Shown here one piece after another: positions 49,971 to 64,000 of a stretch of 64,000 nucleotides of DNA (position 1 is its first letter; each line of letters begins with the position of its first letter). This DNA is from Minisyncoccia bacterium (GTDB lineage Bacteria; Patescibacteriota; Minisyncoccia; Phycocordibacterales; UBA9973). The stretch is from positions 166,392 to 230,391 of the forward strand of contig JBBRTD010000001.1 of the NCBI GenBank assembly GCA_038244685.1. The letters are read 5' to 3'. The notes below the pieces were generated by a model. It made no database searches. It had not been told where the DNA came from and worked only from the letters and a program-made list of their open reading frames with translations. Position numbers and translations under genes: made by a program.

Positions 49971-52900
49971 TTATATTTCTTTTATTACAGGCTTAAGTTT
50001 GCCCACCGTCACCGTAACACTCTTTGAATCATTTCCTCCTGGTCCATTACAGGTCAAAGTATAAATGGTGGTCTTTAGTGGTTTAAAGGTTTTATTATTA
50101 TTACCAATAGGAGTTACACCAACAATGCTGACCGATGGACTAGGAACAGAAACCATGGAACAAGTTGTGGCTCCGGTTGAAGTCCAAGCTACGTTAACGG
50201 CTTCGCCAAATTCAATTTTGTTAGTATTAACTGAGAATGACGATATAGATGCTGGTACTGGTGGATTTGTAACCGTTACAGTAAATAGTGATGACCAAGC
50301 AGAATTTGCTCCTTTAATATCTTGAGTTAGAGCCTTAAGTGAATATACTCCGGGTGTTGGCCATGAATTTGCTGGAACCATTGATGTACCAGAAGCAACA
50401 AAACCAGTCCAAACATCAGCAACTCCATCGTTATTCCAATCAACACCATAGCGAACTTGGTCGAGGTCTGGATCAGTTCCTGTGACTATGAAGTTTTGAA
50501 GTACATCTTTGTAGAAAGTTGCATTTCCAGAAATAGTAGGAGCTAATGGTGCATTATTATCTGAAATACACGTTGCTCCGCCCCAATGGGTTCCGGCTGT
50601 ACAAGAAGCAGTTGCTGTAGCTGTAGAAAGCAAAGTTCCATTATTATATAGGAAGAAATTTCTAGTACCATTTGAAACAGCATAAGAAGTTCCAGCACTT
50701 GAATTGGCATTAGCTACAACAATACTTGTAGGAGTTGTTACTTGAGAAGTTCCTATTGGATATGTTGTACTCCAAATTAAATTCGTATTACATGAACTTG
50801 CCCCGAGTGCTATAGAACAGTTCGTTGCAGTTATTGGTCCACTTGCAGGAGGATTACAAGTAAAATCTGGTAAGGTTTTAATATTACTCCAGGCTCCATT
50901 ACTTGCTCTAGTATGAACATAAAGACCGCTGTATGTCTGACCGGGAGTAATCGCTACACTTGTTGTTGTACCACTTGCAACATCCACATAGAAAGGAGCA
51001 GTTGGTCTTACGTAGCCACCAGTATAAGGAGCTGGAACAGCCCAGTTAAGAGTCACAAGATTTCCAGCAGCATTACATGAACTTGTAAATGAAGTTGGTG
51101 GTGGTGGAATAGTAACTGTTACAGCATCAGAGGCTGACTGACCAGTTGCATTTGTACATGCGAGTGTATATGTTTGAGAAAGCGCACTTGCAGCACCGGC
51201 TTGTGATCCTCCTGATACAGAGACAGCAGAACCATTGATTGTACAACTTGTAGCGTTAGCAACTGCAGCCCAAGAAAGAGTAACAGGAGAACCAACATAA
51301 GTTTCAACTGAACCATCGGCATTATTTGATCCCCAGGCTGTGACTTTTAAGTCAGGAGTTGGAACAGCGGCATTGTTAACGTTAAAAGAAACTGATGTCC
51401 AACTATTCGCTGATGGAACCCAGTCAGAATTGTAACAATATGCTGACATGGTATGAGATCCTACAGAAGTTAAAGCTGGAGTATTATATGTTCCTGAATT
51501 ATAAACACTTGAATAATCCCACCCCCCACCAGAAGTCCAATTCCAATCTAATAATAAGTGACTGTAATATCCATTACTACAAGAATATGAAATAGTTGCT
51601 GGTGATCCGTAGGGAACATTTGGTGTAACAGACAGAGAAGTTATATTTGAAGCACAAGCTGGAACATTGTATGTCTGAGTGCTTGGTCCTGAACAAGCAG
51701 CTCCACCATAAGCAGGTGTTGGGCTATTACATGAGCGAGTTTGAGTTTTCGTCTGAGCGCTATAGGCACAAGTATTATCTTGGGCGCTCCATCCAGACCA
51801 TCCTCCATTTATAGGACAAGGAGCATTTGTATATGCTTGAGTGCTTGAACCAGAACAAGCAGCTCCACCACCTGAAGGTGCTGGACTATCACAAGAACGA
51901 GTTTGAGTTCCGGAATATCCACAGGCAGGATTTTGTGCACTCCAACCTGACCAACCTCCGTTTATAATAGGTGGACTAACAGTGAAAGTTCCTATTCTAC
52001 TCCAACTATTAGCAGAAGGAACCCAGTCAGAATTGTAACAATATGCCATTATATAATGAGTACCAGGAGTTGTAAGAGACCCAGTTGTAGAAGGAGATCG
52101 TGAGCCATAGTATCCACTATCATTTACTGGAGACCACACATCATCCATTATAAGATGACTATAATATCCATTTGTACAAGCATAATAAATATTTGCACTT
52201 CCTCCATATGGAATTACATTCGGAGAAACATAAAGAGATGTAATATTCGAGGCACATGCTGGAACTGTATATGTTTGAGTGCTTGGTCCTGAACAACCAG
52301 CTCCACCATAAGCAGGTGTTGGGCTATTACATGAACGAGTTTGAGTTTTCGTCTGAGCGCTATAGGCACAAGTATTATCTTGGGCACTCCATCCAGACCA
52401 ACCTCCATCAACAGGAGCATTAATAACACTATAATCACATGCAACCCATGGACTACTTACTCCACCTGCATTCATACATGAAACTTTTGCTTGGTGAGAT
52501 CCAACAGAGGCTCCGATTGCTCCTCTGGTTAAAGAAAGTGTCCCACTAGTATTATAATTTGACCAATAAGTATATTCATCAACTTTAAGTGAACACCAAC
52601 TTGCATTCGAAGAACCTACGGTAATATTGACAATATTACCAGAAGAATCTACTCCAGGATTTGGTGAAACAGAACATGAGGAAACGGGGGGTGGTGTAAT
52701 ATAAAAAGGAAGATCCCAATAATTATCACCATATAAACTTATATTTAAACTTACATTGTGATTACCAGGTGTTGCAACATTAAACGAAGTTGCTCCTGAA
52801 GGATAATAAGAAACATCTGTATAGCCGATAACCCATTGATATGTTGGATTTGTGTCAGTATTAGCTAATACATACATCGTTCCACCATAACTGGTATAGT

Positions 52901-53096
52901 CTACTGAAGTGGAAACTGTGACCGTATTTCCTGAAACATTTACGGCTGCAGTAAAGTACGTGTAATCTTCACCATTAGGATGAACGAGAGGCAGAAAAAA
53001 ACTATCTGCATCAACCTTATTAATTGGAATTAATGACAGTCCAAACAGAAAAACAAATATTATGAATAAATTATTAATTACTTTTTTCATTTTCAT
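49971..53096 (-). CDS. Giant secreted surface protein (1041 aa) with three thrombospondin type-1-like repeats, Ig-like repeat modules and a conserved C-terminal region shared with the paralog at 54560-57826
   Basis: Signal peptide MKMKKVINNLFIIFVFLFGLSLIP. TSR-like modules GGWSGWSAQ..C...TQTRSC.SP.P..GGA.CSG.STQ....PAC occur 3 times. Repeated beta-sandwich-like modules (ITSL.V.PNV...YSHL..D..W). C-terminal DPDLDQVRYGVDWNNDGVADVW Ca-binding-like loop. Confidence 0.8.
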   Translation of the reverse strand: MKMKKVINNLFIIFVFLFGLSLIPINKVDADSFFLPLVHPNGEDYTYFTAAVNVSGNTVTVSTSVDYTSYGGTMYVLANTDTNPTYQWVIGYTDVSYYPSGATSFNVATPGNHNVSLNISLYGDNYWDLPFYITPPPVSSCSVSPNPGVDSSGNIVNITVGSSNASWCSLKVDEYTYWSNYNTSGTLSLTRGAIGASVGSHQAKVSCMNAGGVSSPWVACDYSVINAPVDGGWSGWSAQDNTCAYSAQTKTQTRSCNSPTPAYGGAGCSGPSTQTYTVPACASNITSLYVSPNVIPYGGSANIYYACTNGYYSHLIMDDVWSPVNDSGYYGSRSPSTTGSLTTPGTHYIMAYCYNSDWVPSANSWSRIGTFTVSPPIINGGWSGWSAQNPACGYSGTQTRSCDSPAPSGGGAACSGSSTQAYTNAPCPINGGWSGWSAQDNTCAYSAQTKTQTRSCNSPTPAYGGAACSGPSTQTYNVPACASNITSLSVTPNVPYGSPATISYSCSNGYYSHLLLDWNWTSGGGWDYSSVYNSGTYNTPALTSVGSHTMSAYCYNSDWVPSANSWTSVSFNVNNAAVPTPDLKVTAWGSNNADGSVETYVGSPVTLSWAAVANATSCTINGSAVSVSGGSQAGAASALSQTYTLACTNATGQSASDAVTVTIPPPPTSFTSSCNAAGNLVTLNWAVPAPYTGGYVRPTAPFYVDVASGTTTSVAITPGQTYSGLYVHTRASNGAWSNIKTLPDFTCNPPASGPITATNCSIALGASSCNTNLIWSTTYPIGTSQVTTPTSIVVANANSSAGTSYAVSNGTRNFFLYNNGTLLSTATATASCTAGTHWGGATCISDNNAPLAPTISGNATFYKDVLQNFIVTGTDPDLDQVRYGVDWNNDGVADVWTGFVASGTSMVPANSWPTPGVYSLKALTQDIKGANSAWSSLFTVTVTNPPVPASISSFSVNTNKIEFGEAVNVAWTSTGATTCSMVSVPSPSVSIVGVTPIGNNNKTFKPLKTTIYTLTCNGPGGNDSKSVTVTVGKLKPVIKEI

Positions 53097-54408
53097 TCTT
53101 TTTTAGATTTCTAAAATATACAGCAACTCCTGCGACGACAAGAATTCCAATTGCCAAAATTATTAGGCTCTTATTTGCATTAGATTTTTTTTCTTCTGCC
53201 GAAAGAGGAGAAATGGGTAGTAAATTTATTCCAAAATTTTTTTGATCTAAGATATTTCCTTTATCATCTAATAAAGTGATGGAGGTACTGGGATTAAGAC
53301 ATTCTGTTTTTACAACAGCAGATAAATCTGTGATGGGATTTTTTATATTATTAATTAGAGGAATATTTATTGGATTAATGCATTCTTGCCCTTTATCATT
53401 TAACATTGTAGCTTTAATATTTAAATTTAAGGGTGTATTTTCTATTTTTGATTTATTACTACTTGAATTATAAAGCAAAGATAAGATAGCTGTGTCTCCT
53501 TTTTGATAATTATCTTTATTTAAAGTTAGATTTACAATTGAAGCACGAGTACCATTTAAAACATATGAGACATCAATCTTATTTGAAGAAACATCACCTT
53601 CAACCAGACTAACCTTCATATTATAAACCTGAGGGGTATTACCAATCGGAAGATTAATCGAAAATATTTTCTTTTCTTTTGATTTAAAAATTATTATTTC
53701 ATTGTTAATAATATTTTGTGGAACTATTGCCCCGTAAGATGAACCATTAAAAGTTTCAATTAAGGGTAAAACCGATAGATTTTTATCTATTTGATTAGTT
53801 GCTTCACAAAGGAGCTTTAGTGTTTCCCCTTTATTAATAGTAACTTTTTGTGAAATATTGTGATGAGGACTATCTTTTTCTTCTAATACCTGTGTGAAAC
53901 AAGTTGGTTCTGAAATAAGCAAACCCGCTTCTGAGGCCTTCAGGGTAACCTTACCTAATGAAACCTTAGCAAAAGGAAATCCATTTTCATTTTTAGCATT
54001 TATAAATAAATTATATTCACCCGAAAGTATTTTAGGGTAAGTGTAACTAATTTCTTTATTTAAAGTTTTATTTTCAAGAAGAACTAGAGATTCTTCGTAA
54101 ATTTTTTCATCAATAAGGTATGGAGTTTTTGAATCAGTGTCATACAGCTCAACTCCATATTTAATTCCAGTTTGAATTCCTGTACGATTTGATAAGATAA
54201 AAGAAATATTTATTATATTATCTTTTTGGGAAACTATTTTAGCATCTATTATATTTACGGTTGCTAAAACTACAGCTTTATTTATCGTATTATTAATAGC
54301 GGGTGGAACATTTGGCAGTTTTTGTGTTTCGTCTGCAAGGATAGGGGTTGCTAAAATAAAAGAAAGAAAAATAAACAAACTCACCGTTGGAATTTTTAAT
54401 AAATACAT
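53074..54408 (-). CDS. Signal-peptide protein with C-terminal TM anchor (444 aa), translationally coupled to the downstream giant gene
   Basis: N-terminal signal, beta-rich body, C-terminal LIILAIGILVVAGVAVYF then basic tail. 23-nt overlap with the start of 49971-53096. Confidence 0.6.
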   Translation of the reverse strand: MYLLKIPTVSLFIFLSFILATPILADETQKLPNVPPAINNTINKAVVLATVNIIDAKIVSQKDNIINISFILSNRTGIQTGIKYGVELYDTDSKTPYLIDEKIYEESLVLLENKTLNKEISYTYPKILSGEYNLFINAKNENGFPFAKVSLGKVTLKASEAGLLISEPTCFTQVLEEKDSPHHNISQKVTINKGETLKLLCEATNQIDKNLSVLPLIETFNGSSYGAIVPQNIINNEIIIFKSKEKKIFSINLPIGNTPQVYNMKVSLVEGDVSSNKIDVSYVLNGTRASIVNLTLNKDNYQKGDTAILSLLYNSSSNKSKIENTPLNLNIKATMLNDKGQECINPINIPLINNIKNPITDLSAVVKTECLNPSTSITLLDDKGNILDQKNFGINLLPISPLSAEEKKSNANKSLIILAIGILVVAGVAVYFRNLKKNENEKSN

Positions 54409-54508
54409 TTTATAAATTCTATTTTAAATAATAAATAATTGCCATAAGTATAACATTAGATATAGATATCAATGTCTAGTTTATTTGTTTAAATGTTTTG
54501 TAATATAG

Positions 54509-54543
54509 AAACACCCTAGGAACCTTTGTTCCTAGGGTGTTTA
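54509..54543. terminator. Terminator AACACCCTAGGAAC-CTTTG-TTCCTAGGGTGTT
   Basis: 14-bp stem 3' of the giant paralog. Confidence 0.55.
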
Positions 54544-54559
54544 AAACTATTTTATTTTA

Positions 54560-57500
54560 TTAAATTTCTTTAATTGTCGGTTTAATTTTCCCCACCGTCA
54601 CAGTAACACTCTTTGAATCATTTCCTCCTGGTCCATTACAGGTCAAAGTATAAATGGTGGTCTTTAATGGTTTAAAAGTTTTATTATTATTACCAATAGG
54701 AGTTACGCCAACAATACTGACGGATGGACTAGGAACAGAAACCATAGAACAGGTTGTGGCTCCGGTTGAAGTCCAAGCTAGGTTAACGGCTTCGCCGAAT
54801 TCAATTTTATTTTTATCTATAGTAAAGGATGTAATTGAGGCTGGTACTGGTGGATTTGTAACAACAACCGTGAACAATGATGACCAAGCAGAATTGGCTC
54901 CTTTAATATCTTGAGTTAAAGCCTTTATGTTGTAAGTACCAATAGTCGGCCACGAATTTGTTGGAACCATTGATGTGCCAGAAGCAACAAAGCCAGTCCA
55001 AACATCTGCAACTCCATCGTTATTCCAATCAACACCATAGCGAACTTGGTCGAGGTCTGGATCAGTTCCTGTGACTATGAAGTTTTGAAGTACATCTTTG
55101 TAGAAAGTTGCATTTCCAGAAATAGTTGGTGCTAATGGTGCATTATTATCTGAGATACATGTTGCTCCACTCCAATGAGTTCCGGCTGTACAAGAAGCAG
55201 TCGCTGTAGCTGTAGAAAGCAAAGTCCCATTATTATATAAGAAGAAATTTCTAGCACCATTTGATATAGCATAAGAAGTTCCAGCACTTGAGTTAGCGTT
55301 AGCTACAACAATACTTGTGGGGGTTGTTACTTGAGAAGTTCCTATTGGATATGAAGTACTCCAAATTAAATTCGTATTACATGAACTCCCGTTTAGAGGA
55401 ATTGTACAATTTGTAGCTGTAAGTGGTCCTGAAGCAGGGGGATTACATGTAATGTCTGCTATTGGTAAGGTATTACTCCAGGCTCCATTTGAACTTCTGG
55501 TGTGTAAATAAACTCCACTATAAGTTTGACCGGGAGTAACAGTAACATTAGTACTAAAACCACTTACAATGTCTTGATGAAAAGGTAATGTACCCCAGGG
55601 CGTACTTCTTAAATAGGCACCTGTATATCCAGGCTGAAGAGTCCAATTAAGTGTAGCTAAATTCCCAGCGGCATTACATGATCTTGTAAATGAAGTTGGT
55701 GGTGGTGGAACAGTAACGGTTACAGCATCAGAAGCAGATTGACCGGTTGCATTTGTACATGAAAGTGTATGAGATTTTGTTATTAAACTTGCCGTTCTTG
55801 TTTGAGACCCTCCTGAAACAGCAACAGCTGATCCATCGAGAGTACAACTTGTAGCGTTAGGAACTGCTGCCCAAGAAAGAGTATAAATATCACCTATATA
55901 AGTTTCTAATGGTCCATTAGAATTTGAACCTGACCACGCAGTAACTCTTAAATCAGGAACTGGGGCAGCGGCATTACTAACACTGAATGATACAGAATAC
56001 CAACTATTTGCAGATGGCACCATATCTGTATTGTAACAATATGCTGACATTGTATGAGATCCTACAGAAGTTAAAGCTGGAGTATTATATGTTCCTGAAT
56101 TGTAAACACCTGAATAATCCCATCCCCCACCTGAAGTCCAATTCCAATCTAATAATAAGTGACTGTAATAACCACTACTGCAAGAATATGAGATTGTTGC
56201 AGGTGTTCCATATGGGACAACATTATTTGTTATTGATAATGAGGTTATATTTGAACGTAAAGCAAAGTTAGCTGTACAGGTTTTTGATGAATCCATTGTT
56301 ACCTGTCCACTTGCATTACAACTTCCAGTCCATCCTGAAAATGTTGAATTGGCACTTGGAGAGGCAGTTGCTGTTACAAAAGTTCCTGGAGCATAACTTC
56401 CACTACCCCCCACAGAGCCAGAACCGGTCCCTGCTGTATTTACGGTAAGATTATAATTTACACAGTTAATAGCAACATTGGCTTGAATACTCCATGCTCC
56501 ATTTGAAGGATTTCTTGTGTGAACCCAGGCACTATAACCAGTATTTGGGGAAATTGAGAAGCCATCTGAAGTTCCAACAGAACCATCATTATAAAGAACA
56601 GTCGCTCCGTCTGAATTTCTAGAAGCTCTTGTATAAAAAGTATTATAACCAGCAGGTGCAGCCCAATTTATGGTTGCATACGTCGCACTAGCATTACAAG
56701 AATAACTTAGACTTGTAGGCATCGGTGGAGTAGTGATAGTAACTGAATCAGAAGCTGACTGACCTGTTGCATTTGTACATGAAAGAGTATGAGATTCCGA
56801 ACGAGCATTTGCAGTCCCAGCTTGTGAACCACCTGAAACAGAAACAGCGGAACCATCTAGAGTACAACTTGTAGCATTTGGTACGGCGTTCCAGTATAGA
56901 GTAAATGGAGAGCCTGTATAAGTTTCTATTGAACCATCGGCATGATCATAACCCCAAGCTGTGACTTTTAAGTCAGGAGTTGGTGTTGGAGCATTACTAA
57001 CAGTAAAAGATCCTATTCTAGTCCAACTATTAGCTGAAGGTACCCAATCTGAGTTATAACAATATGCCATGGCATAGTGAGATCCAGGAACTGTAAGTGC
57101 CCCTGTCGTCGTTGGAGATCTTGAACCATAATAGTTTGAATCTTGCCAAGCCCAAGTATCATCTAAAATAATATGACTATAATATCCATTCGTACAAGCA
57201 TAATATATATTAGCAGAACCTCCATACGGGACAACATTCGGTGAAACATACAAAGAAGTTATATTTGAAGCACAAGCTGGAACATTATATGTCTGAGTGC
57301 TTGGTCCTGAACAATCTGCTCCGCCATAAGCTGGTGTTGGATTATTACATGAACGAGTTTGAGTTTTAGTTTGAGCACTATATGCACAAGTATAATCTTG
57401 AGCACTCCAACCAGACCAACCTCCATTTACATTTACACCAAAATTTACGGTATACCAACCGGTCCAAACCCAATCATTGTTATAACAAGTTACAGAAGCA

Positions 57501-57826
57501 GTATGACCTCCAGGAGCCAAAACCGGTGTTGTCCATGAGCCAGAACTAGAATAAATAACACCTAAGGCATCTCCTCCCCAATCAAGATAAACATCACAGA
57601 AATCTGTACCACTATTCGCTGTATATGATATTGTTCCAGTTCCTCCGACAGGAATATTACCTGGAGTGACAGTTACAGAAATAATAGCAGGAAGCGGTCT
57701 GACTGTAACAGTAGTACTTCCTCCCCCAGTATCAGCATTTGCAAATGTAGGCCCTAATATAGACAAAACGAGAATGAATAAAAATATTTTTATTGTTTTC
57801 ATAATTTTAGATAAGATACGACTCAT
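54560..57826 (-). CDS. Giant secreted surface protein paralog (1088 aa) with one TSR-like repeat, Ig-like modules and the same C-terminal region as 49971-53096
   Basis: Signal peptide. NGGWSGWSAQDYTCAYSAQTKTQTRSCNNPTPAYGGADCSGPSTQTYNVPAC. C-terminal roughly 330 aa nearly identical to the paralog at protein and DNA level. Confidence 0.8.
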   Translation of the reverse strand: MSRILSKIMKTIKIFLFILVLSILGPTFANADTGGGSTTVTVRPLPAIISVTVTPGNIPVGGTGTISYTANSGTDFCDVYLDWGGDALGVIYSSSGSWTTPVLAPGGHTASVTCYNNDWVWTGWYTVNFGVNVNGGWSGWSAQDYTCAYSAQTKTQTRSCNNPTPAYGGADCSGPSTQTYNVPACASNITSLYVSPNVVPYGGSANIYYACTNGYYSHIILDDTWAWQDSNYYGSRSPTTTGALTVPGSHYAMAYCYNSDWVPSANSWTRIGSFTVSNAPTPTPDLKVTAWGYDHADGSIETYTGSPFTLYWNAVPNATSCTLDGSAVSVSGGSQAGTANARSESHTLSCTNATGQSASDSVTITTPPMPTSLSYSCNASATYATINWAAPAGYNTFYTRASRNSDGATVLYNDGSVGTSDGFSISPNTGYSAWVHTRNPSNGAWSIQANVAINCVNYNLTVNTAGTGSGSVGGSGSYAPGTFVTATASPSANSTFSGWTGSCNASGQVTMDSSKTCTANFALRSNITSLSITNNVVPYGTPATISYSCSSGYYSHLLLDWNWTSGGGWDYSGVYNSGTYNTPALTSVGSHTMSAYCYNTDMVPSANSWYSVSFSVSNAAAPVPDLRVTAWSGSNSNGPLETYIGDIYTLSWAAVPNATSCTLDGSAVAVSGGSQTRTASLITKSHTLSCTNATGQSASDAVTVTVPPPPTSFTRSCNAAGNLATLNWTLQPGYTGAYLRSTPWGTLPFHQDIVSGFSTNVTVTPGQTYSGVYLHTRSSNGAWSNTLPIADITCNPPASGPLTATNCTIPLNGSSCNTNLIWSTSYPIGTSQVTTPTSIVVANANSSAGTSYAISNGARNFFLYNNGTLLSTATATASCTAGTHWSGATCISDNNAPLAPTISGNATFYKDVLQNFIVTGTDPDLDQVRYGVDWNNDGVADVWTGFVASGTSMVPTNSWPTIGTYNIKALTQDIKGANSAWSSLFTVVVTNPPVPASITSFTIDKNKIEFGEAVNLAWTSTGATTCSMVSVPSPSVSIVGVTPIGNNNKTFKPLKTTIYTLTCNGPGGNDSKSVTVTVGKIKPTIKEI

Positions 57827-57908
57827 TAGATTTCTATTTGATTCTAATTTAGAAACAATAAATTTAAGTTTCTAACTCTAGAGTAAACCATTAATATAAA
57901 ACTACATA

Positions 57909-58412
57909 TTAATGTATAGGACGACACATATAACCACCAGTTCTGGAAGTCATAATATTGGAAAGGCCGAATGAAGTAGGAGAAGAATCAACAACTCTAT
58001 AGTCATAAGCACCATTATCAAGAGCACCTGCTAAAACTTCACCAGTACCATAGGTACCACTAACGAAAGGCCCTGTTTCAAACACATTACTACTGGTACA
58101 ATGCTGTAATTTATAATAATAGTAAGTTGGTGATGAGGCCCCTGAACAAGTAACAGAAAAAGTAGTAGTTGCGTATAAATTACTTACATAAAAAGACCCA
58201 GTTGGGCCACTACCTCCTCTTCCCCCTGCTTCAAAACAAGTAGAAGCACCTGAAGATGTCCAACTTATTTGAGTACCTCCCCCATAAGAAACAGCAGAAG
58301 GGTATGCAGTTACAGTAACGGCAACAGCGGCGCTACAAATATTTGCTGATATAAAAGCTATCCCAAAAACAAATAAAATTTTAACTAAAGATTTATTAAA
58401 TATTTTTTTCAT
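57909..58412 (-). CDS. Secreted protein (167 aa) carrying the YYKLQHC...SRTGG.C C-terminal domain
   Basis: Signal peptide. Shares ...YYYKLQHCT..NVF(E/Q)TGPF.SGTY.TGEVLAGALDNG.YDYRVVDSS with the C-terminus of 62933-64000. Confidence 0.6.
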   Translation of the reverse strand: MKKIFNKSLVKILFVFGIAFISANICSAAVAVTVTAYPSAVSYGGGTQISWTSSGASTCFEAGGRGGSGPTGSFYVSNLYATTTFSVTCSGASSPTYYYYKLQHCTSSNVFETGPFVSGTYGTGEVLAGALDNGAYDYRVVDSSPTSFGLSNIMTSRTGGYMCRPIH

Positions 58413-58539
58413 GTTATTTTAATAAGATATTATGATATTGCCTTAAATTATATCATATATAGATAAATATTTACAATTAAACAAAAAAAAGACCACTCAA
58501 ATTATATAAAATAATTGAGTGGCTTTTTTATTTAGTCTA

Positions 58540-59250
58540 CTATTTGACCTTCTTGTATACGTCTTTAAAGTTATCCTTAAAGATTCTAAAGGATTCCGAA
58601 GATATATTTTCAACCTTCCAAGCCCCACCCCAATTTAATGTTGGTGGTTTTGTTGTTTCATCGACAGACCAAGGTCCATCGCCTTTAAAACTTCCAACCA
58701 TTACATCAAACCTACCATTCGGAAGAAAAGTAACAACATCTGCCTCTGCTCGTGGAATAGAATAATATTTCCAAACCAGAGTTGGATCTTCGGGGGTTTT
58801 TGGTTCGTAAATATAAACCGAATCCTTAACCCATGAACCTTGAAGAAAGATCCAGGATAATGTTTTTTCAAAAGTTACTTTTACCTCATAATTTGTGGAG
58901 GCGTTAGTAGATATAACATAATTTTTACTTGTCATTGGAGTAGCAACCCCATTAACAGTTATAGTTTTTTGGGTGTAGCCAGGATCGGCTTCCGTCAAAA
59001 TTTCAACTACTGCACCACTTACCGCTTCATTTGGGCAAATGATTTTACCACCTATTCCGTTAACAACGGAAGCGGTAATCGTGAATTTCTGTGCAGGAGG
59101 ATCAAGAGGTCCTTCTTTACAAGAAACAATAAACATAAGTCCTACAACTAGCAGGACAACAAGAAAAAATAGTTTTTTCATATCCTTTATTTTTAGTGTA
59201 AATTTTCCTAATTTCATATATAGTATAGTACTTTTTAAGCATTTTGTCAA
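58540..59250 (-). CDS. Lipoprotein (236 aa)
   Basis: Lipobox LVVGLMFIVSC. Confidence 0.55.
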   Translation of the reverse strand: MTKCLKSTILYMKLGKFTLKIKDMKKLFFLVVLLVVGLMFIVSCKEGPLDPPAQKFTITASVVNGIGGKIICPNEAVSGAVVEILTEADPGYTQKTITVNGVATPMTSKNYVISTNASTNYEVKVTFEKTLSWIFLQGSWVKDSVYIYEPKTPEDPTLVWKYYSIPRAEADVVTFLPNGRFDVMVGSFKGDGPWSVDETTKPPTLNWGGAWKVENISSESFRIFKDNFKDVYKKVK

Positions 59251-59451
59251 GTTTCAATGCTCTTATATCGTATGCCTAATCTAAAGACTTTTTTGCTAAA
59301 TAAAATTAAATCAAAAAATAATAATTTCATATTTCATTTATATAAGTGTATAATAATATATTATTAATTAAATAGATATGCTTTGTTTCAATCAATAAAA
59401 TCGTTATAAATGAATTAATAGATTCGAAGCTTAGCAATTCTGTAAAATCGT

Positions 59452-60129
59452 ATGCAAAGAAATAAAATAATTTTAGCCTTGGCCATAGGAACAATATTTT
59501 CACCTGTAATAACAATACAAGCAGTGGAAAAAACAAACACAATAAAAGCAACTACAACAACGCAATCTCAAAATATTACAAAAATTCCTACAATCGATAA
59601 AGCAAAGATTGAAGAAATGAGAGCAAAACTAATGATTGAGACTAAAACCATAAAAGGTAATCTTGATATTCAAAAAGCTGAAATTGAAAAATTATTAGCA
59701 GAAAAAAAAGGTGAGACCAAAACAAAGCTTGTAGCAAAATCTCAAGAAAAAGTTCGAACTATTTTAGATAATATTTTTAATAAATTTAATGCTCAATTAG
59801 GAAAACTTTCAGGAGTTGACGCTAAGGTATCAATAAAAATCAATACTTTAGAAAAAACTGGGGTAAATGTAAGCGAGGCAAAGACACAATATACTATAGC
59901 TAAAGCCTCATTAGACAAGACAACAGCAGAAGTTCTAGCCATAAGAATGGTTTTAATGGAACAAATTACAGTAGATACATCAAGAGGAACATTTAGAGAT
60001 CTTGTAAAGAAAGCAGAAGAAAGTATGAAGGCTACAGGAAAAGAATATAACAAAATTATACCTCTTATCGTTAGTAGAAATAATAATGTCGAAGCAAAAG
60101 TTAATACAAATATTATAAATCAACAATAA
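59452..60129 (+). CDS. Secreted coiled-coil protein (225 aa)
   Basis: Signal peptide MQRNKIILALAIGTIFSPVITIQA, heptad-rich K/E composition. Confidence 0.55.
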   Translation: MQRNKIILALAIGTIFSPVITIQAVEKTNTIKATTTTQSQNITKIPTIDKAKIEEMRAKLMIETKTIKGNLDIQKAEIEKLLAEKKGETKTKLVAKSQEKVRTILDNIFNKFNAQLGKLSGVDAKVSIKINTLEKTGVNVSEAKTQYTIAKASLDKTTAEVLAIRMVLMEQITVDTSRGTFRDLVKKAEESMKATGKEYNKIIPLIVSRNNNVEAKVNTNIINQQ

Positions 60130-60135
60130 TCACAT

Positions 60136-60402
60136 ATGGAACCAACAACACCAACAGTAGCAGTAGCAAATAATAAATCAAAAATGGCTATCATTGTAAT
60201 TATAGTATTAATCATAATCGCTGGAGCGATAGCTGTAATATCACGTAGAGGAAAAACAGAAGTAAATCCTGCAAATAATGGGGAGGTTCAAAATGGTACA
60301 GTCTCCGAGTCGGATGATTCTCAAATCTTAACACAAGAGATTACTGCAGCCACAACATTTGATAATGAAAAAGATTTAAGTGAAATAGATAGCGCCTTCT
60401 AA
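60136..60402 (+). CDS. Small single-pass membrane protein (88 aa)
   Basis: TM IIVIIVLIIIAGAIAVI, acidic C-terminus. Confidence 0.45.
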   Translation: MEPTTPTVAVANNKSKMAIIVIIVLIIIAGAIAVISRRGKTEVNPANNGEVQNGTVSESDDSQILTQEITAATTFDNEKDLSEIDSAF

Positions 60403-60415
60403 TAATAGAATAAAT

Positions 60416-60445
60416 AAAAACCCTCGGAATATTCCGAGGGTTTTT
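60416..60445. terminator. Bidirectional terminator AAAAACCCTCGGAAT-ATTCCGAGGGTTTTT
   Basis: Perfect palindrome between convergent genes. Confidence 0.6.
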
Positions 60446-60455
60446 ATTTATTCTA

Positions 60456-61928
60456 TTATTGTTCTATATAAGTTGTATTCATCTTATCTACTGGAATCGT
60501 TACAGAGTCTGAGATAGAAGCTCCGTAGAATCCTAGACATGAAATAGTATATTTTGTATCTCTCTTTAGGGCTGGAGTTACATAAGGACTATTTTCATTT
60601 CCTCCACAACTGCCGCTTACTCCTGCTTTATCAGAATATTCACAAGAACAAGAATCAACATTTTCGGAAGTCCAAATTACTTTTGCTTTTCCGTTATAAG
60701 TAATTTTTTGACCAGTAGGAAGTGGTTTGTCTTTCCAAGTAAATGAAACATTCAAAGCTGGACATAGATTATTTGTATAGTCTCTACTTGTTGCCATACC
60801 ATCAGCATCAGGCGCACAAGGAGCACCTCCATTTAAAGGTTCAATACAAGATCTTGTTTGAGTACCACTACCTGGACAAGTACTTGATCGAGATGTCCAT
60901 GCCGTCCAAGCACCATCTACTTTTGGACCTGCAGGTGGAGTAGCAATACAAACTGAACCATTCCAAGTACAATTATTTAACTGTGCATCAACATATTTAC
61001 TTGCTAATTCTTTTCCAGTGTTATAAAGGAATAATGTCGTTGATTCACCATAAGATAGAGTTAAAGATTTATTTCCAACATCCCCTGTGGCGAGAGTCTT
61101 ACCACCAGTACTTTCGGTTACAGCAGAAGCTCCAACTGTTTCTGGATTAGTAACCTTCCAAGAATAAGGAACAGCACATGAACTTTCGCCAATACTTATA
61201 AGACAACTAGTTGCATCCAAATTACCAGACATCGGACCGGCAGGATATTTACAATTATCACTTACATAAGTTGAATTTGAATTAGTAACCGGTGTTTCAA
61301 AAATACATCCAGGAAAATCACTTTTTGTTTGCTTTCTTATTACTGAACCAGAGATAGCAGCATCACCATTCCCGTTTAAGTCACAAGCAACAGTAACGTT
61401 CTTAGTTAGAGGAGCAGGGCAAACTGTTCCGCAGGCTTTGGTATCATTATCTGCTGCGGGACAAGCAATTCCACCATTTGATGCTGGAGTAGTTATATTG
61501 TAAGTTTCAGTTCCGTTTACACAAGAACTCCAACTACCAACACAATTTGTTCCACAGGTACGAGTCGCATTATCGGCAAAAGAACATACCGCCCCGCCTC
61601 CTGATGCAGGCGAAGTAATATTATAAGTCTGAGTTCCGTTTGAACATGAACTCCAACTACCAACACAGCTTGTTCCACAATTTTGAGTTGCTCCATTAAC
61701 TGCCGAGCAGACAGCGCCACCGTTTTCGGCTGGAGTGGTAATGTTGTAAGTTTGAGAACCATTAATACAAGTGCTGTAACTTCCCGAACAATCAACAACC
61801 CCAGCTCCTGCTCCTACGACTTGGACAGTTGCGGTTCCAGAAATAGAAGCCGCATTGGCAGAAATAAATCCTAATATAAAAAATGAGAAAACGAATAAAA
61901 TAATTTTTGAAATTTTCATTGCGTTCAT
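60456..61928 (-). CDS. Secreted Cys-rich protein (490 aa) with three short TSR-like modules and one fuller TSR-like module
   Basis: Signal peptide. Three repeated modules C(G/I)(T/N)(S/G)...W(S)SC.NGT.TYNIT.PA..GG..C. C-terminal DGAWTAWTSRSSTCPGSGTQTRSCIEPLNGGAPC. Confidence 0.7.
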   Translation of the reverse strand: MNAMKISKIILFVFSFFILGFISANAASISGTATVQVVGAGAGVVDCSGSYSTCINGSQTYNITTPAENGGAVCSAVNGATQNCGTSCVGSWSSCSNGTQTYNITSPASGGGAVCSFADNATRTCGTNCVGSWSSCVNGTETYNITTPASNGGIACPAADNDTKACGTVCPAPLTKNVTVACDLNGNGDAAISGSVIRKQTKSDFPGCIFETPVTNSNSTYVSDNCKYPAGPMSGNLDATSCLISIGESSCAVPYSWKVTNPETVGASAVTESTGGKTLATGDVGNKSLTLSYGESTTLFLYNTGKELASKYVDAQLNNCTWNGSVCIATPPAGPKVDGAWTAWTSRSSTCPGSGTQTRSCIEPLNGGAPCAPDADGMATSRDYTNNLCPALNVSFTWKDKPLPTGQKITYNGKAKVIWTSENVDSCSCEYSDKAGVSGSCGGNENSPYVTPALKRDTKYTISCLGFYGASISDSVTIPVDKMNTTYIEQ

Positions 61929-62074
61929 AAAATTGCTTGATAATTGATAAATAATAAATAGAAACTATTGTTTTTATTATACCAATAAATGAATAGCATT
62001 AGCAAATAAATTTATGTCTATTTAATGACAATCTAAGTGTTATTAAATAATTATAAAAGTACCCCAATATACAA

Positions 62075-62106
62075 AAAACCCTTTTCTTGAAAAAGAAAAG
62101 GGTTTT
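62075..62106. terminator. Terminator AAAACCCTTTTCTT-GAAA-AAGAAAAGGGTTTT
   Basis: 14-bp perfect stem. Confidence 0.55.
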
Positions 62107-62125
62107 CGTATATTTATACATACAC

Positions 62126-62782
62126 CTATATTGGTGTGTAGGTTTCCTCGAATAAGTTTGTATTAGTAGCCACAGATGATATCAATACTAAATGATTAGC
62201 ATCAACGGTAACTAATTCCCAAGTAGAACTTCCTATTTTTATAATCTTATTAGACCAGGTCCATTTATATGAAGCAGTATATACTCCATCTAAAAAGAAA
62301 TCTTGAGTCCAATCGTCTTTAAAAAAAAGTGATTCTTTGGCTCCATCAAAAGTCATGTCTCTGATGAATTCTCTTTTGGAATTTAACAAACGATATTTTC
62401 CATTACCCCACTTAAAGTGAGTAAGAATCCCGAATTGGGAAGTAGTCCAGTTGCCCACGTGAGTGGTAACTGTTTTATTAGCACTAACACTTCCGTTAAT
62501 AGCGTTAATCGTAACCGTTGTCTCCCTTATTAAAGTTGGAAGGGCAACATTGATTACATCTGCTTTTTCGTTGTTGATTAAAAGTGAAGTAAAGTCCTTC
62601 ACAGTTCCTACAATATTAATAGTGTCCCCAAATACTACTGTTGTATCTGAAAAATTAGTTAATATTGTTGGAGTTTTAGCTACAACAACTGGAGGATTTA
62701 TTGGCTCAAGACCCCCCGATCCTGTCGAACAACTAATTAATAAGCTGCTCAAAATAACAACCATCAAAATTCTGCTCATCAT
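62126..62782 (-). CDS. Lipoprotein (218 aa)
   Basis: Lipobox SSLLISCSTG. Confidence 0.55.
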   Translation of the reverse strand: MMSRILMVVILSSLLISCSTGSGGLEPINPPVVVAKTPTILTNFSDTTVVFGDTINIVGTVKDFTSLLINNEKADVINVALPTLIRETTVTINAINGSVSANKTVTTHVGNWTTSQFGILTHFKWGNGKYRLLNSKREFIRDMTFDGAKESLFFKDDWTQDFFLDGVYTASYKWTWSNKIIKIGSSTWELVTVDANHLVLISSVATNTNLFEETYTPI

Positions 62783-62862
62783 ATGTTAAGGTATTTGTTT
62801 CTTCCTTTAAATAATGATATATAAATGGGAATTAGTCAAATTTTAACAGTGGATAACTTTTT

Positions 62863-62914
62863 AAGTATATACAAAATAAAACCCTATATTTAGGGTTTTA
62901 TTTTGTATATACTT
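62863..62914. terminator. 52-bp perfect palindrome AAGTATATACAAAATAAAACCCTA-TATT-TAGGGTTTTATTTTGTATATACTT
   Basis: Exact reverse-complement arms centred at about 62888. Confidence 0.55.
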
Positions 62915-62932
62915 AAATTTATTTAAGAGATA

Positions 62933-64000
62933 TTAATTTGAAATTGTACGGCAAACACTTCCTCCAGTTCTAGAAGTTCCAGAGATGAAACCGATACCTG
63001 AGAATGGAGTAGTCGAAGAATCAACAACTCTATAGTCATATGTACCATTATCAAGGGCTCCAGCTAATACTTCACCGGTACTATATGTTCCACTTGGGAA
63101 AGGGCCAGTTTGGAATACATTTGGACCAGTACAATGCTGTAATTTATAGTAATAACTACCCTTATTAGTAGTTACTGAATTTGTATCATCAGTACAAACT
63201 ACTTCAAATTTCTCATCACAAGTTTGTTTTGTAGGACAAGTCAAAGCTCCGGTTGCTGCCTTGCCTACTGGATAACCATAATGAGTGCCATTAGGGTCAC
63301 CCTTCACATAACAATAGGCCTTACTTTCATCTAGACCCCAAGCACGCCACACTAAATTAGTTCCCTCTTTGTCATTTACTGTTGAGTTTTCAACTGTCAC
63401 ATCAATGCCTGGGGCTACATATGGCTTTTTGTAGAAACAAGATTTGAGTACATTTGGAACAGGGTCACCACCGAAGGTACTTGTGTCACATTTAATACTA
63501 TCTGTTGCATCTTTAAAGATACATAATCCTCCTAATGTACCAAAGGCGACACTAGTAGTACCAGAAACGGTACAGTCTCCTCCTTCATCACTACATTTAG
63601 AAAATCCTGTAAGGTCACAACCAACAATGTAAGGAACATTTGTTTCGAAATATACAACAGGAGTTGTATCCATGAAAGGGTTTGCAAGACCTTGAGCTAA
63701 GAAATTTGGATTAAAGAAATAACCTTCATGTTTATAATAAGCCTTTATATTCATACTATAATTACCAGGAACACTCGGAGCTTGGAATGGGGGAGTAAAG
63801 ATCCCTGCACCATAGATTGCATATCCTCCAGTGACGTTCTCATTGATAATAGTGTAGTGATTGGGTTGACCACTAATCTGACCTTCCATAATAATATTTA
63901 TGGTTGAATTTCCACATGTTGGAAATTCAACACCAGCTAATATTGTGACAGGCTCACCAGGGGCATAAACTTTTTTACTAAAATTTAAAATAAAAACTAA
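62933..64000 (-). CDS. Secreted protein with YYKLQHC C-terminal domain, 5'-truncated by window edge (frame open beyond 64000)
   Basis: Reading frame continues without a stop upstream of the listed M to the window end. C-terminal roughly 90 aa homologous to 57909-58412. Confidence 0.6.
   Translation of the reverse strand, partial: LVFILNFSKKVYAPGEPVTILAGVEFPTCGNSTINIIMEGQISGQPNHYTIINENVTGGYAIYGAGIFTPPFQAPSVPGNYSMNIKAYYKHEGYFFNPNFLAQGLANPFMDTTPVVYFETNVPYIVGCDLTGFSKCSDEGGDCTVSGTTSVAFGTLGGLCIFKDATDSIKCDTSTFGGDPVPNVLKSCFYKKPYVAPGIDVTVENSTVNDKEGTNLVWRAWGLDESKAYCYVKGDPNGTHYGYPVGKAATGALTCPTKQTCDEKFEVVCTDDTNSVTTNKGSYYYKLQHCTGPNVFQTGPFPSGTYSTGEVLAGALDNGTYDYRVVDSSTTPFSGIGFISGTSRTGGSVCRTISN

Follow-up and report, generated by a model that had tools for sequence, protein, structure and literature searches.

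TSRs (thrombospondin type 1 repeats) are adhesion modules of eukaryotic proteins: thrombospondin, properdin, ADAMTS, F-spondin, and the apicomplexan proteins TRAP and MIC2. The C-mannosylation and O-fucosylation of eukaryotic TSRs are not expected in a bacterial (CPR) host. In one evolutionary account, TSRs are viewed as animal-derived (PMC3417536). Loss of the bottom disulfide is known from the C-terminal TSRs of complement C6, C7, C8 alpha, C8 beta, and C9 (Tan et al. 2002, PMC2173040). The domains of midkine and pleiotrophin (HB-GAM) are small TSR-like beta-sheets, which possess group 2 disulfides and a reduced core (PMC2173040). In a literature search of incomplete coverage, no description of TSRs in Patescibacteria, Parcubacteria, or CPR was found.

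The gene and its seven modules

We analyzed the gene at 60456..61928 (minus strand) of the window, which is the whole stretch of 64,000 nucleotides. Its open reading frame, read from the sequence, starts with ATG and encodes 490 amino acids, the stop codon being included in the coordinates. The first-pass annotation had called the product a Cys-rich secreted protein, and this description is accurate: the protein contains a Sec-type signal peptide and 28 Cys residues, all of them C-terminal to it. Each of the seven modules possesses exactly four Cys residues, which implies two disulfides per module. The features are as follows.

61976..62005, minus strand: promoter-like site TTGCTA-18-(TG)TATAAT upstream of the gene (consensus match only)
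61851..61928, minus strand: Sec-type signal peptide, residues 1-26, MNAMKISKIILFVFSFFILGFISANA followed by AS (read from the sequence)
61668..61790, minus strand: candidate mini-TSR module M1 with C47, C54, C74, and C84, Tyr in place of Trp; 67.1 bits with the mini HMM
61545..61667, minus strand: candidate mini-TSR module M2 with C88, C95, C115, and C125; 70.0 bits with the mini HMM
61422..61544, minus strand: candidate mini-TSR module M3 with C129, C136, C156, and C166; 71.9 bits with the mini HMM
61242..61421, minus strand: module B, residues 170-229, an uncharacterised 60-residue repeat with four Cys, CxAPLTKNVT..ISGSV..QTK..P.C.F..YVSDNCxYP
60921..61235, minus strand: module C, residues 232-336, a predicted beta-sandwich with four Cys, common to two neighbours of about 1,000 amino acids
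60759..60920, minus strand: 4-Cys TSR, residues 337-390, with W341-x-x-W344, TQTR359, C351, C361, C371, and C389
60459..60758, minus strand: predicted C-terminal Ig-like beta-sandwich, residues 391-490, with four Cys (AF2 strands, pLDDT about 70-87)
60408..60453, no strand assigned: bidirectional terminator-like hairpin with a 20-bp stem, directly 3' of the stop codon (terminator scan)

The promoter-like site has 10 of 12 matches and an extended -10 TG in the consensus scan, and it is preceded by the upstream gene's terminator-like hairpin (62074-62107). The hairpin at the 3' end is common to the gene and to a convergent gene at 60136-60402 (plus strand). The second ATG (M4) may be the true start. 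The N-terminus is common to the homologues P0002-P0005, all of which start with MKI.KI, and the codons of the signal peptide are nearly unchanged in comparison with the ortholog described below (dS 0.14, against 0.81 for the whole gene).

NCBIfam holds no family for the protein or for its Cys-rich neighbours. When the whole protein was compared with PDB sequences, the sole match was a marginal one, between the C-terminal module 337-390 and the BAI1 TSR (7r84, E 0.19). The protein has 15 N-x-S/T sequons, about twice the comparison value of 8.0 +/- 2.4. N-glycosylation was set aside as a reading of this excess, which is mostly due to the repeated modules; the sequons are not strictly conserved in the orthologs.

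The 41-residue mini modules and their relation to TSRs

The mini modules are M1 (residues 47-87, CSGSYSTCINGSQTYNITTPAENGGAVCSAVNGATQNCGTS), M2 (residues 88-128, CVGSWSSCSNGTQTYNITSPASGGGAVCSFADNATRTCGTN), and M3 (residues 129-169, CVGSWSSCVNGTETYNITTPASNGGIACPAADNDTKACGTV). The first-pass annotation had reported three consecutive modules of roughly 40 residues; each is exactly 41 residues long, and together they occupy residues 47-169. Pairwise identities are 24-29 of 41 amino acids, and 59-71% at the nucleotide level. At an offset of 41, 55 of 82 residues are identical, whereas the maximum in shuffled sequences was 19 and a value of 55 was reached in 0 of 20,000 shuffles. The pattern given in the first-pass annotation, C.G(T/S).CVGSWSSC, describes the same repeat in a register shifted by four residues, since the natural unit begins at CVGSW; M1 departs from it in having Tyr for Trp. 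The annotation also held that W(S/T)xW and TQTxxC were retained. This applies to the C-terminal module but not to the minis, which have one aromatic residue and QTY rather than QTR.

Several hallmarks of TSRs are thus missing from the minis. The Trp ladder is absent, a single Trp being found in M2 and M3 (CVGSWSSC) and Tyr in M1. The Arg layers of strand B (RxR) are also absent, with QTYNIT or ETYNIT in their place. There are four Cys residues per module and not the six of TSRs. In an alignment of the Cys columns, these four (C0, one Cys of the A-B turn, C4, and C5) all belong to the group 2 pattern, of which the bottom pair is missing. The AF2 model of M2 (pLDDT 85.9) contains three strands, at positions 2-5, 12-19, and 34-37.

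Pfam: None of the three modules reached a gathering threshold, which is 21.6 bits for TSP_1 (PF00090) and 41 bits for TSP1_spondin (PF19028). M1 matched both families weakly (14.0 and 13.9 bits, E 0.06-0.07), M3 matched TSP1_spondin with 17.7 bits against the cut-off of 41 (E 0.0043), and M2 had no match. In a scan of 33 minis, TSP1_spondin was matched by 22 and TSP_1 by 10, all below threshold, with best E-values of 6e-4 and 1e-3. The only matches outside the TSP1 families were one to PTN_MK_C (E 0.16) and one to Sublancin (E 0.76). Thus, among the Pfam matches of these 33 minis, there is no Cys-rich family that explains the modules better than TSRs do.

Profile-profile comparison: hhalign aligned the mini profile to an alignment of canonical TSRs (11 members, 10 of which are called TSP_1 by Pfam) with 92.9% probability (E 3.6e-7, score 32.6). 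For comparison, 300 column permutations scored 10.9 +/- 2.7 with a maximum of 20.8, and the reversed profile scored 8.2. These controls are far lower, and a compositional effect is therefore excluded. Module B of the same protein, which is also Cys-rich, gave only 4.3% against TSRs. Thus, the match is not a general effect of Cys-rich sequences. Against the two human TSP-1 repeats (TSR2/3) alone, the minis gave 4.4%, that is, no direct similarity. Hence the link between minis and TSRs is transitive, via bacterial TSRs. The mini profile had no match among PDB sequences. Fold searches with the mini gave weak matches that include MIC2 and properdin, and these are suggestive only, not being statistically significant.

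Bridging modules: In homologues, the minis adjoin "hybrid" modules, which have six Cys residues and a single Trp. All seven hybrids tested matched the mini HMM (best-domain scores of 27-55 bits). Six of them passed the Pfam gathering score of TSP_1 (26.6-32.6 bits against 21.6), and the seventh, P0014b, was just under it (20.5 bits). The six plain 6-Cys hybrids differ from the minis by a single insertion of four residues, xCGx, whereas two insertions separate the P0008 hybrid from them. Among 55 mini-bearing proteins, 24 have arrays in which minis alternate with hybrids. Furthermore, WxxW and Arg persist in some 4-Cys forms (P0047, P0052, and P0081). In the architectural homologues P0005, P0007, and P0012, the N-terminal slot held here by the minis is filled by canonical TSRs. 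The number of minis varies among orthologs, being two in P0004 and three in the others. Together with the hhalign result and its controls, the bridging modules agree with the first-pass view of the minis as degenerate TSRs, and the origin of the minis from TSRs is well supported by these comparisons.

Within the TSRs, the minis resemble group 2 (F-spondin/TRAP/MIC2) in several respects. A Cys precedes the Trp (C-x-G/S-x-W), in place of the one that follows the Arg of strand B. This N-terminal Cys implies the 'top' disulfide, which joins the A strand to the C strand. The minis also possess the GG-x-x-C motif and Q-x-C near the end, and TSP1_spondin is the commonest Pfam family among them (22 of 33). 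In contrast to group 2 TSRs, they have 41 residues rather than about 50-55 and four Cys rather than six (the last Cys is absent, as is one of those in the A-B turn). Moreover, they have one aromatic residue instead of the WxxW(xxW) ladder, and Tyr, Asn, and Ile at the Arg layers. The highest of their scores, 17.7 bits, is far from the 41 bits of the family cut-off. In sequence terms, the minis appear to be group 2 (F-spondin-type) TSRs that have a single Trp and Tyr in the place of Arg, and that lack the bottom disulfide.

The hybrids of bacterial and eukaryote-like proteins (P0008, P0018, P0021, P0011, and P0035) share with the minis QTY in place of QTR. Unlike the minis, they have kept xCGx and the final N-x-x-x-C, and they possess three disulfides. 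Their host proteins also differ: some start with a type IV prepilin-like N-terminus, others carry a Hint domain, and others possess a TM helix and tail of eukaryotic style. The complement C-terminal TSRs are like the minis in being without the bottom disulfide, but they are of the group 1 type, and the fold matches are not statistically significant. As for midkine and pleiotrophin, PTN_MK_C was matched by just 1 of the 33 minis, without significance. The Cys spacing and the basic, heparin-binding character of midkine are absent here, Arg making up 1.3% of the mature protein.

In the Cys-column alignment, Cys residues are gained or lost as disulfide pairs: C0 occurs only if C3 is absent, C1 and C5 disappear together, and an A-B turn Cys and C6 are also lost jointly. 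This behaviour matches the definitions of group 1 and group 2 and the loss of the bottom disulfide in the complement C-terminal TSRs (PMC2173040). The minis probably arose from an F-spondin/TRAP-type (group 2) TSR by loss of the four-residue xCGx of the A-B turn and, as a second change, of the C-terminal Cys; these two losses would remove the bottom disulfide. The Trp ladder would have been reduced to one aromatic residue, and the Arg of strand B replaced by Tyr. By homology to the group 2 pattern, the predicted disulfides are C47-C74 and C54-C84 in M1, C88-C115 and C95-C125 in M2, and C129-C156 and C136-C166 in M3.

The C-terminal TSR and the other modules

The C-terminal TSR-like module of the first-pass annotation was recovered at residues 337-390, and the string DGAWTAWTSRSSTCPGSGTQTRSCIEPLNGGAPC lies at residues 338-371 within it. 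W341-T-A-W344 and TQTR359 are kept; the module has two Trp and a single Arg, against a full set of three Trp and three Arg. It has four Cys and not six, the C1 and C5 columns being occupied by R347 and Y384. Gln, Arg, or Lys together with Tyr is found at C1/C5 in most aligned modules of this 4-Cys subtype, and the same swap is present in four of the four TSRs of the two large neighbours.

The Pfam scores of the module were below threshold for both TSP1_spondin (24.4 bits, E 3.5e-5) and TSP_1 (18.1 bits, E 3e-3), and a canonical TSR HMM gave 26.3 bits. With hhalign, the alignment of the 4-Cys subtype matched canonical TSRs with 98.9% probability (E 3.5e-17); human TSP-1 TSR2/3 on their own gave 97.1% (E 6.7e-11). 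Thus, for the minis as for the C-terminal subtype, the profile-profile check against TSP_1 proposed in the first-pass annotation revealed similarity. Module 337-390 is a TSR minus one disulfide. In our model, it would be a group-1-type TSR in which the middle disulfide, C1-C5, was lost (R347/Y384), and in which C351-C389 and C361-C371 were kept.

Module B: This repeat occurs in 19 copies in homologues, with up to six in tandem (P0007). No Pfam match was found, and a profile search of the PDB gave chance matches only, with no relative.

Module C: BLASTP showed 32-33% identity over 111 amino acids with the proteins at 54560-57826 and 49971-53096. In the AF2 model, the module is all-beta, with a pLDDT of about 70-86 over most of its length and below 50 at residues 320-336.

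C-terminal Ig-like module: Residues 391-490 end in the conserved tail VDKMNTTYIEQ. The module is kept in P0002-5, P0007, P0010, and P0012.

The full-length AF2 model, built on an alignment of 8 sequences, is of moderate confidence (pLDDT 68). Foldseek with this model returned generic Ig-like strings (adhesins, S-layer proteins, the Aureispira grappling-hook protein GhpA, and PTP-delta) and was uninformative on the small modules.

Genome context and possible function

SecY from this DNA is 93% identical to that of a Paceibacterota MAG and 89-90% identical to those of Ca. Nomurabacteria MAGs; the host is a Nomurabacteria-like Patescibacterium (CPR). Eukaryotic contamination was considered and rejected, given the bacterial housekeeping genes on either side of the gene (EF-Tu, SecY, and FtsH) and the synteny in a related MAG. 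The syntenic cluster of that MAG contains an ortholog with 70% identity. In comparison with it, dN/dS is 0.23 over the whole gene (0.26 for the minis alone), and the gene is under purifying selection.

The gene lies within a conserved island of paralogous genes for secreted, lipoprotein, and membrane-anchored products. The two neighbours of about 1,000 amino acids share with the 490-residue protein the 4-Cys TSR subtype (40% over 58 amino acids), the beta-sandwich module C (33% over 111 amino acids), and the C-terminal tail. The first-pass annotation had placed the protein in one family expansion with giant TSR proteins. This is borne out only as a sharing of domains: minis are absent from the two neighbours, one of which has a single TSR and the other three. 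A protein of 444 amino acids at 53074-54408 is a C-terminally membrane-anchored neighbour, and a lipoprotein is encoded at 62126-62782. A search of the window for oxidative folding revealed no thiol-disulfide oxidoreductase devoted to exported proteins. It turned up just one DsbD_2-HMA protein, which belongs to a copper-resistance-like cluster and is uninformative on oxidative folding.

We consider that the gene probably encodes a Sec-exported surface protein with reduced group 2 TSRs, likely a disulfide-stapled adhesin or stalk. The protein would be monocistronic and extracellular, with its modules arranged as beads on a string. The N-terminal mini-TSR rod, stapled by disulfides, and the later modules would project from the cell surface. 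By analogy to the TSR arrays of eukaryotic adhesins, they may bind a surface structure of a host or partner cell. The constant cassette of TSR, Ig-like module, and tail at the C-terminus would tether the protein to the cell or to an assembly. In other bacteria, arrays of minis and hybrids are found on a prepilin-like protein (P0008) or beside pilin genes (P0014), and these pilin-associated arrays fit an extracellular stalk or adhesion role.

A possible but unlikely alternative is that the protein has a passive, structural place in the cell envelope, for example within an S-layer-like coat or as a spacer of a pilus or fibre; the minis would then be rigid disulfide-stapled spacers with no ligand of their own. 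The Trp-Arg groove, which is the ligand-binding face of classical TSRs, is gone from the minis, and the full-length model is no closer to adhesins than to S-layer proteins and fibre shafts. The arrays of other bacteria have a pilin-like head on one side and a C-terminal Cys-rich knob on the other, as a spacer would, and the island of paralogous exported genes would also suit an envelope component. However, the minis of this protein are N-terminal, presumably distal, and not between two globular parts. Both the module number (2 or 3) and the sequence (dN/dS 0.26) vary, as is expected of an exposed, interacting part, and Pfam and NCBIfam revealed no S-layer or pilin signature.

It is improbable that the protein is released as a soluble factor, acting as a decoy, as a binder of phage or host polymers, or as a carrier of another effector. 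Such a role would agree with the type I signal peptide and with the lack of known anchoring signals: no lipobox, LPXTG, TM helix, or hydrophobic C-terminal stretch was read in the sequence, and an NCBIfam scan for sorting domains (PEP-CTERM and T9SS CTD type) gave no match. The mini-bearing homologue P0011 possesses a Hint domain, which is typical of self-processing or toxin-delivery proteins. On the other hand, Pfam and NCBIfam detected no catalytic or toxin domain, and the C-terminal cassette and tail are kept across differing architectures, which suggests a function in attachment or assembly. The nearby lipoproteins and C-terminally membrane-anchored proteins could be docking partners.

Slightly less probable still is an independent Cys-rich fold of the minis, with a TSR likeness by convergence or by a composition rich in Cys, Gly, Ser, and Thr: they pass no Pfam threshold, have no PDB profile match, reach 4.4% with human TSRs, score without significance in fold searches, and are missing WxxW, RxR, and two of six Cys, but permutation and reversal exclude a compositional effect, Cys-rich module B has no TSR match, the hybrids align to the minis over the full length bar the four-residue insertion (with 6 of 7 passing TSP_1) and alternate with them in 24 of 55 proteins, 4-Cys forms with WxxW and Arg are known, and minis are swapped for canonical TSRs in the same architecture.

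Our preferred reading, that of a surface protein with reduced group 2 TSRs, has several consequences. A CPR episymbiont lineage has several TSR variants in one conserved island of secreted proteins. TSRs would be trimmable to 41 residues and two disulfides, without the Trp-Arg core regarded as the hallmark of the fold. Pfam and NCBIfam annotation misses this trimmed variant, despite the 1,141 protein clusters matched by the mini profile, which include pilin-like bacterial and eukaryote-like proteins. A pattern scan of genome contigs with a family alignment gave no confirmed relative. A dedicated mini profile would annotate many 'hypothetical' surface proteins and would nominate candidate host-attachment proteins of CPR, a group with a poorly understood adhesion machinery. 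In protein engineering, the minis point to a minimal rod module stapled by disulfides. The finding is incremental: the family is known, Pfam already flags its bacterial members automatically, and the function is proposed by analogy only.

A broader reading, which we regard as doubtful, is that the two-disulfide, single-Trp module of 41 residues represents a distinct minimal TSR fold outside all family databases, widespread in bacterial surface proteins (CPR and type IV pilin-like) and protist membrane proteins. CPR would build a host-binding adhesive surface from it and a lineage-specific tail (...K-x-N/P-x-x-Y-I-E-Q or ...K-P-x-I-K-E-I), the tail serving as a novel tag for attachment or sorting. 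If a minimal TSR is indeed so widespread, the bacterial pool of TSRs could inform the origin of the 'animal/apicomplexan' TSR.

Gene and modules of the target protein

A single ORF on the minus strand fills window positions 60456..61928 exactly and encodes the target, a 490-aa Cys-rich protein with a typical Sec signal peptide (…FISANA/AS). All of its 28 Cys residues lie in the mature part, and each of the seven modules contains exactly four. The gene looks monocistronic. The features are as follows.

Features of the target gene (window positions) and protein (residues)
62074-62107: terminator-like hairpin of the upstream gene
61976-62005: promoter-like site of the target gene, TTGCTA-18-TG-TATAAT
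residues 47-87: M1, 41-aa unit
residues 88-128: M2, 41-aa unit
residues 129-169: M3, 41-aa unit
residues 170-229 (61242-61421, minus strand): module B, 60-aa
residues about 232-336: module C, beta-sandwich-like
residues 337-390: W-x-x-W / TQTR module
residues 391-490: Ig-like C-terminal domain, ending …VDKMNTTYIEQ
60408-60453: bidirectional 20-bp hairpin directly 3' of the target stop codon

The three tandem modules described in the first-pass annotation were confirmed (M1-M3, hereafter the minis), except that the natural unit begins at CVGSW. At an offset of 41, 55 of 82 positions were identical, and 20,000 shuffles never gave more than 19. Pairwise identities were 24-29 of 41 aa and 59-71% in nucleotides; this divergence indicates an old duplication and excludes an assembly artefact. 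The W(S/T)xW and TQTxxC motifs, described in the first-pass annotation as retained, are confined to the C-terminal module; WxxW and TQTR are absent from the minis. The Trp is present in M2 and M3, but M1 carries Tyr instead.

The mature target contains 15 N-x-S/T sequons against 8.0 +/- 2.4 in shuffles (about two-fold, P about 0.004), an enrichment partly due to the repeat and not strictly conserved in orthologs. Each mini has two to three (NGS/NGT, NIT, NAT/NDT).

Homologues carry 19 copies of module B (consensus CxAPLTKNVT…ISGSV..QTK..P.C.F…YVSDNCxYP), and P0007 has tandem runs of up to six. The module is not TSR-like (TSR, thrombospondin type 1 repeat), and neither Pfam nor the PDB offers a relative. 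It looks like an extracellular repeat domain that has yet to be described.

TSR relationship of the C-terminal module and the minis

Residues 337-390 matched TSP1_spondin (E 3.5e-5) and TSP_1 (E 3e-3) in Pfam, both under the gathering scores, and gave a marginal BAI1 TSR match in the PDB search. An alignment was built from this segment, the equivalent modules of homologues and the four TSRs present in two large neighbours, ~1,000-aa proteins encoded at 49971-53096 (-) (three TSRs) and 54560-57826 (-) (one TSR). In hhalign, this 4-Cys alignment matched canonical TSRs at 98.9% (E 3.5e-17) and human TSP-1 TSR2/3 alone at 97.1%, which bears out the earlier proposal of a TSR-like C-terminal module. 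In the canonical register, C351, C361, C371 and C389 correspond to C2, C3, C4 and C6, and R347 and Y384 fill the C1 and C5 columns. The same paired swap (Gln/Arg/Lys with Tyr) was observed in 4/4 neighbour TSRs and in most homologue modules of this 4-Cys subtype. Thus, the middle disulfide was lost as a pair, and such paired loss fits what would be predicted of a genuine TSR fold.

For the minis, the direct Pfam evidence is weak but one-sided. M1 and M3 gave TSP1 matches below threshold, and M2 gave none. In an alignment of 33 minis from the target and its homologues (A1), 22 matched TSP1_spondin and 10 matched TSP_1; no rival family appeared except for two noise-level matches. We then have the profile similarity to TSP_1 expected by the first-pass annotation: A1 matched an alignment of 11 canonical TSRs (A2; Pfam TSP_1 in 10) at 92.9% (E 3.6e-7, score 32.6), beyond 300 column permutations of A2 (10.9 +/- 2.7, maximum 20.8) and the reversed profile (8.2). 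Module B, also 4-Cys and from the same proteins, reached 4.3% against TSRs. The minis showed no direct similarity to two human repeats alone (4.4%), and neither the WxxW ladder nor the Arg layers that define the TSR core are present in them. Therefore, we file them as derived TSR homologues and not as members by family criteria.

The strongest evidence for a TSR origin of the minis is the continuity through hybrids, which are 6-Cys, single-Trp modules in homologues (e.g. CVGSWGNCSQSCGTGTQTYGISLPATGGGANCPFANGTTQSCNTEAC). Six of the seven hybrids tested reached the TSP_1 gathering score of 21.6 (26.6-32.6 bits; the seventh, P0014b, had 20.5), and all seven matched the mini HMM (best domain, 27-55 bits). 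The six plain 6-Cys hybrids are one xCGx insertion apart from the minis, and the P0008 hybrid needs two insertions; P0008 also contains a chimera, CVGSWGAYGACSASCGGGTQTRTYTVTTPASGGGIACP…. Moreover, P0005, P0007 and P0012, which have modules B, TSR and Ig plus tail in common with the target, carry canonical TSRs in the N-terminal slot held by its minis.

The joint alignment of TSRs, hybrids and minis has seven Cys columns: C1-C6 in canonical repeats; C0, C1, C2, C4, C5 and C6 in hybrids; and C0, one A-B turn Cys, C4 and C5 in minis. Which CSxxC cysteine survives in the minis is indistinguishable, because either 4-residue deletion yields the identical string. The hybrid columns equal the group 2 pattern of F-spondin, in which an A-strand Cys substitutes the B-strand Cys in the top disulfide (Tan et al. 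2002, PMC2173040). The mini columns mean that the bottom disulfide is gone, which complement C6-C9 have likewise lost from their C-terminal TSRs (Tan et al. 2002, PMC2173040). By this pattern, M1-M3 are group 2 TSRs in reduced form.

An AF2 model of one mini had three strands (pLDDT 85.9). Foldseek gave nothing at E below 1; among 18 weak matches were seven that we take to be TSR-bearing chains (C8 alpha, C8 beta, three membrane-attack-complex chains, MIC2 and properdin). The predicted structure agrees with a TSR origin without proving it. The minis very probably derive from the TSR, and resemblance by convergence instead of homology, to which the missing WxxW and Arg layers might be referred, is highly improbable.

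Distribution, neighbouring genes and host

The mini profile was run exhaustively with HMMER over 1.84 billion cluster representatives and matched 1,141 proteins at E <= 1e-3, of which 373 reached E <= 1e-10. The 162 classifiable proteins among the matches contained 275 hybrids and 112 complete 4-Cys single-Trp minis; the latter were spread over 55 proteins, with at least three in 16 of these. Both types occurred together in 24 proteins, and a few 4-Cys modules keep WxxW and Arg. Among the carriers are proteins whose N-termini resemble type IV prepilins (P0008, P0018, P0021, P0022, P0027 and P0032, among others), one Hint-domain protein (P0011), and long eukaryote-like proteins that combine EGF domains with TM helices and cytoplasmic tails. 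The mostly-mini proteins P0002, P0004 and P0006 had no precomputed Pfam annotation, and NCBIfam has no model. Thus, the mini variant is widespread, unannotated and not peculiar to the window.

In P0006, P0008 and P0011, homologues in other bacteria, the mini/hybrid arrays sit on pilin-like or Hint-domain proteins and end in a common Cys-rich knob at the C-terminus (P0006 and P0008, …CYNNP(A/D)C(S/G)H; P0011, …CTGMSTNCH). Mini-bearing P0014 directly adjoins three type IV pilin genes and a T2SS-F gene.

Both large neighbours (1,041 and 1,088 aa) resemble the target in four respects: their TSRs are of the 4-Cys subtype (40% identical over 58 aa), they carry module C (33% over 111 aa), their Ig-like domain is weakly similar, and they have a similar signal peptide and C-terminal tail. 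The suggested single family expansion with these giant TSR proteins holds only at the level of common domains; the neighbours contain no minis and only three and one TSRs. This distribution points to domain shuffling in one lineage-specific surface-protein repertoire, rather than simple paralogue expansion.

The extreme tail (60459-60500 (-) and the 3' ends of both neighbour genes) reads …VTIPVDKMNTTYIEQ in the target and …VTVTVGKLKPVIKEI and …VTVTVGKIKPTIKEI in the neighbours; no TM helix or known sorting motif was found in it. Patescibacteria-like homologues with other domain content end in …YIEQ, …YIEN, …VIEQ, …KSKEI, …SVEEN and …VYQEK. The pattern was matched by 11/166 collected proteins, all 11 among the first-search homologues P0001-P0015, and by none of the 146 mini-profile matches P0021-P0166. 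The tail may be a tag specific to this lineage, for attachment or sorting. A 444-aa protein with a signal peptide and a C-terminal TM anchor (53074-54408 (-)) may be a membrane docking partner of the tail-bearing proteins. The 3' end of its gene overlaps the start of the large TSR-bearing gene 49971-53096 (-) by ~20 nt, and the same arrangement occurs on the related metagenomic contig L082 (17030-18361 with 18345-19148).

The window (GC ~34%) also encodes EF-Tu, FtsH, SecY, ribosomal proteins and a VirD4-like ATPase. SecY was 93% identical to that of a Candidatus Paceibacterota MAG and 89-90% to those of Candidatus Nomurabacteria MAGs, which places the host in Nomurabacteria-like Patescibacteria (CPR). 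The target gene lies in an island (~49971-64000) whose products are secreted proteins, lipoproteins or proteins anchored to the membrane by the C-terminus. L082 keeps the gene order: lipoprotein, target ortholog (70% identity), 88-aa and 222-aa genes on the opposite strand, then genes for 229-aa, 168-aa, ~940-aa TSR-bearing and 443-aa anchored proteins. Since dN/dS against this ortholog was 0.23 for the whole gene and 0.26 over the minis, the target is a real gene under purifying selection.

The signal-peptide codons (61851-61928 (-); L082 10001-10078) had a dS of 0.14 against 0.81 for the whole gene, with 25/26 residues identical in a sample of only 26 codons; recombination, a conserved 5' cassette or regulatory constraint could explain this. 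A second secreted Cys-rich family (57909-58412 (-) and 62933-63889 (-); L082 4250-5389, 7695-8981 and 13465-13971) shares the C-terminal motif …(G)(I/F)(S/T)…TSRTGG(Y/S)(M/V)CR(P/T)… and gave no match in family searches. In L082, its genes form repeated triplets with those of a ~220-aa lipoprotein and a ~440-aa C-terminally membrane-anchored protein. Elsewhere, a metal/redox cluster (16726-23259) encodes DUF305, an HMA-DsbD_2 fusion, a cupredoxin-like protein, a secreted double cytochrome b5 protein, a ferric-reductase-like flavoprotein and, at 17289-19589, a putative copper P-type ATPase, so named from its N-terminal MxCxxC motif. This redox gene load is unusual for a small CPR genome.

Likely function

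The target combines a signal peptide with seven small, all-beta modules, and two disulfides presumably staple each of them. No enzyme domain was found in it, and its full-length model resembles Ig-like domain strings of adhesins, S-layers and the Aureispira grappling-hook protein. The target is probably an extracellular stalk or adhesin for host or partner-cell contact; for adhesion proper, the chances are about even. CPR bacteria live as episymbionts, and other bacteria mount the same arrays on pilin-like proteins, both of which favor this reading. It is also favored because TSRs are adhesion modules in eukaryotes (PMC2173040, PMC3417536). The main rival, a purely structural spacer or coat, is made plausible by the missing Trp-Arg face of the minis; we consider it rather unlikely beside a stalk or adhesin. 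The target sequence has no TM helix, lipobox or LPXTG, and the best candidate for an attachment part is the TSR-Ig-tail cassette, which is constant across otherwise differing N-terminal architectures; there is only a slim chance that the target is a released soluble factor.

The TSR family is already known, and bacterial TSRs are flagged automatically by Pfam; our literature search found no account of TSRs in CPR, Patescibacteria or Parcubacteria. The novelty lies in recognising two reduced TSR variants that each fall short of the thresholds of current models: the 41-aa two-disulfide mini and the 4-Cys repeat with a cystine replaced by Arg and Tyr. The breadth of both variants and their occurrence in a conserved CPR surface-protein island are also new.
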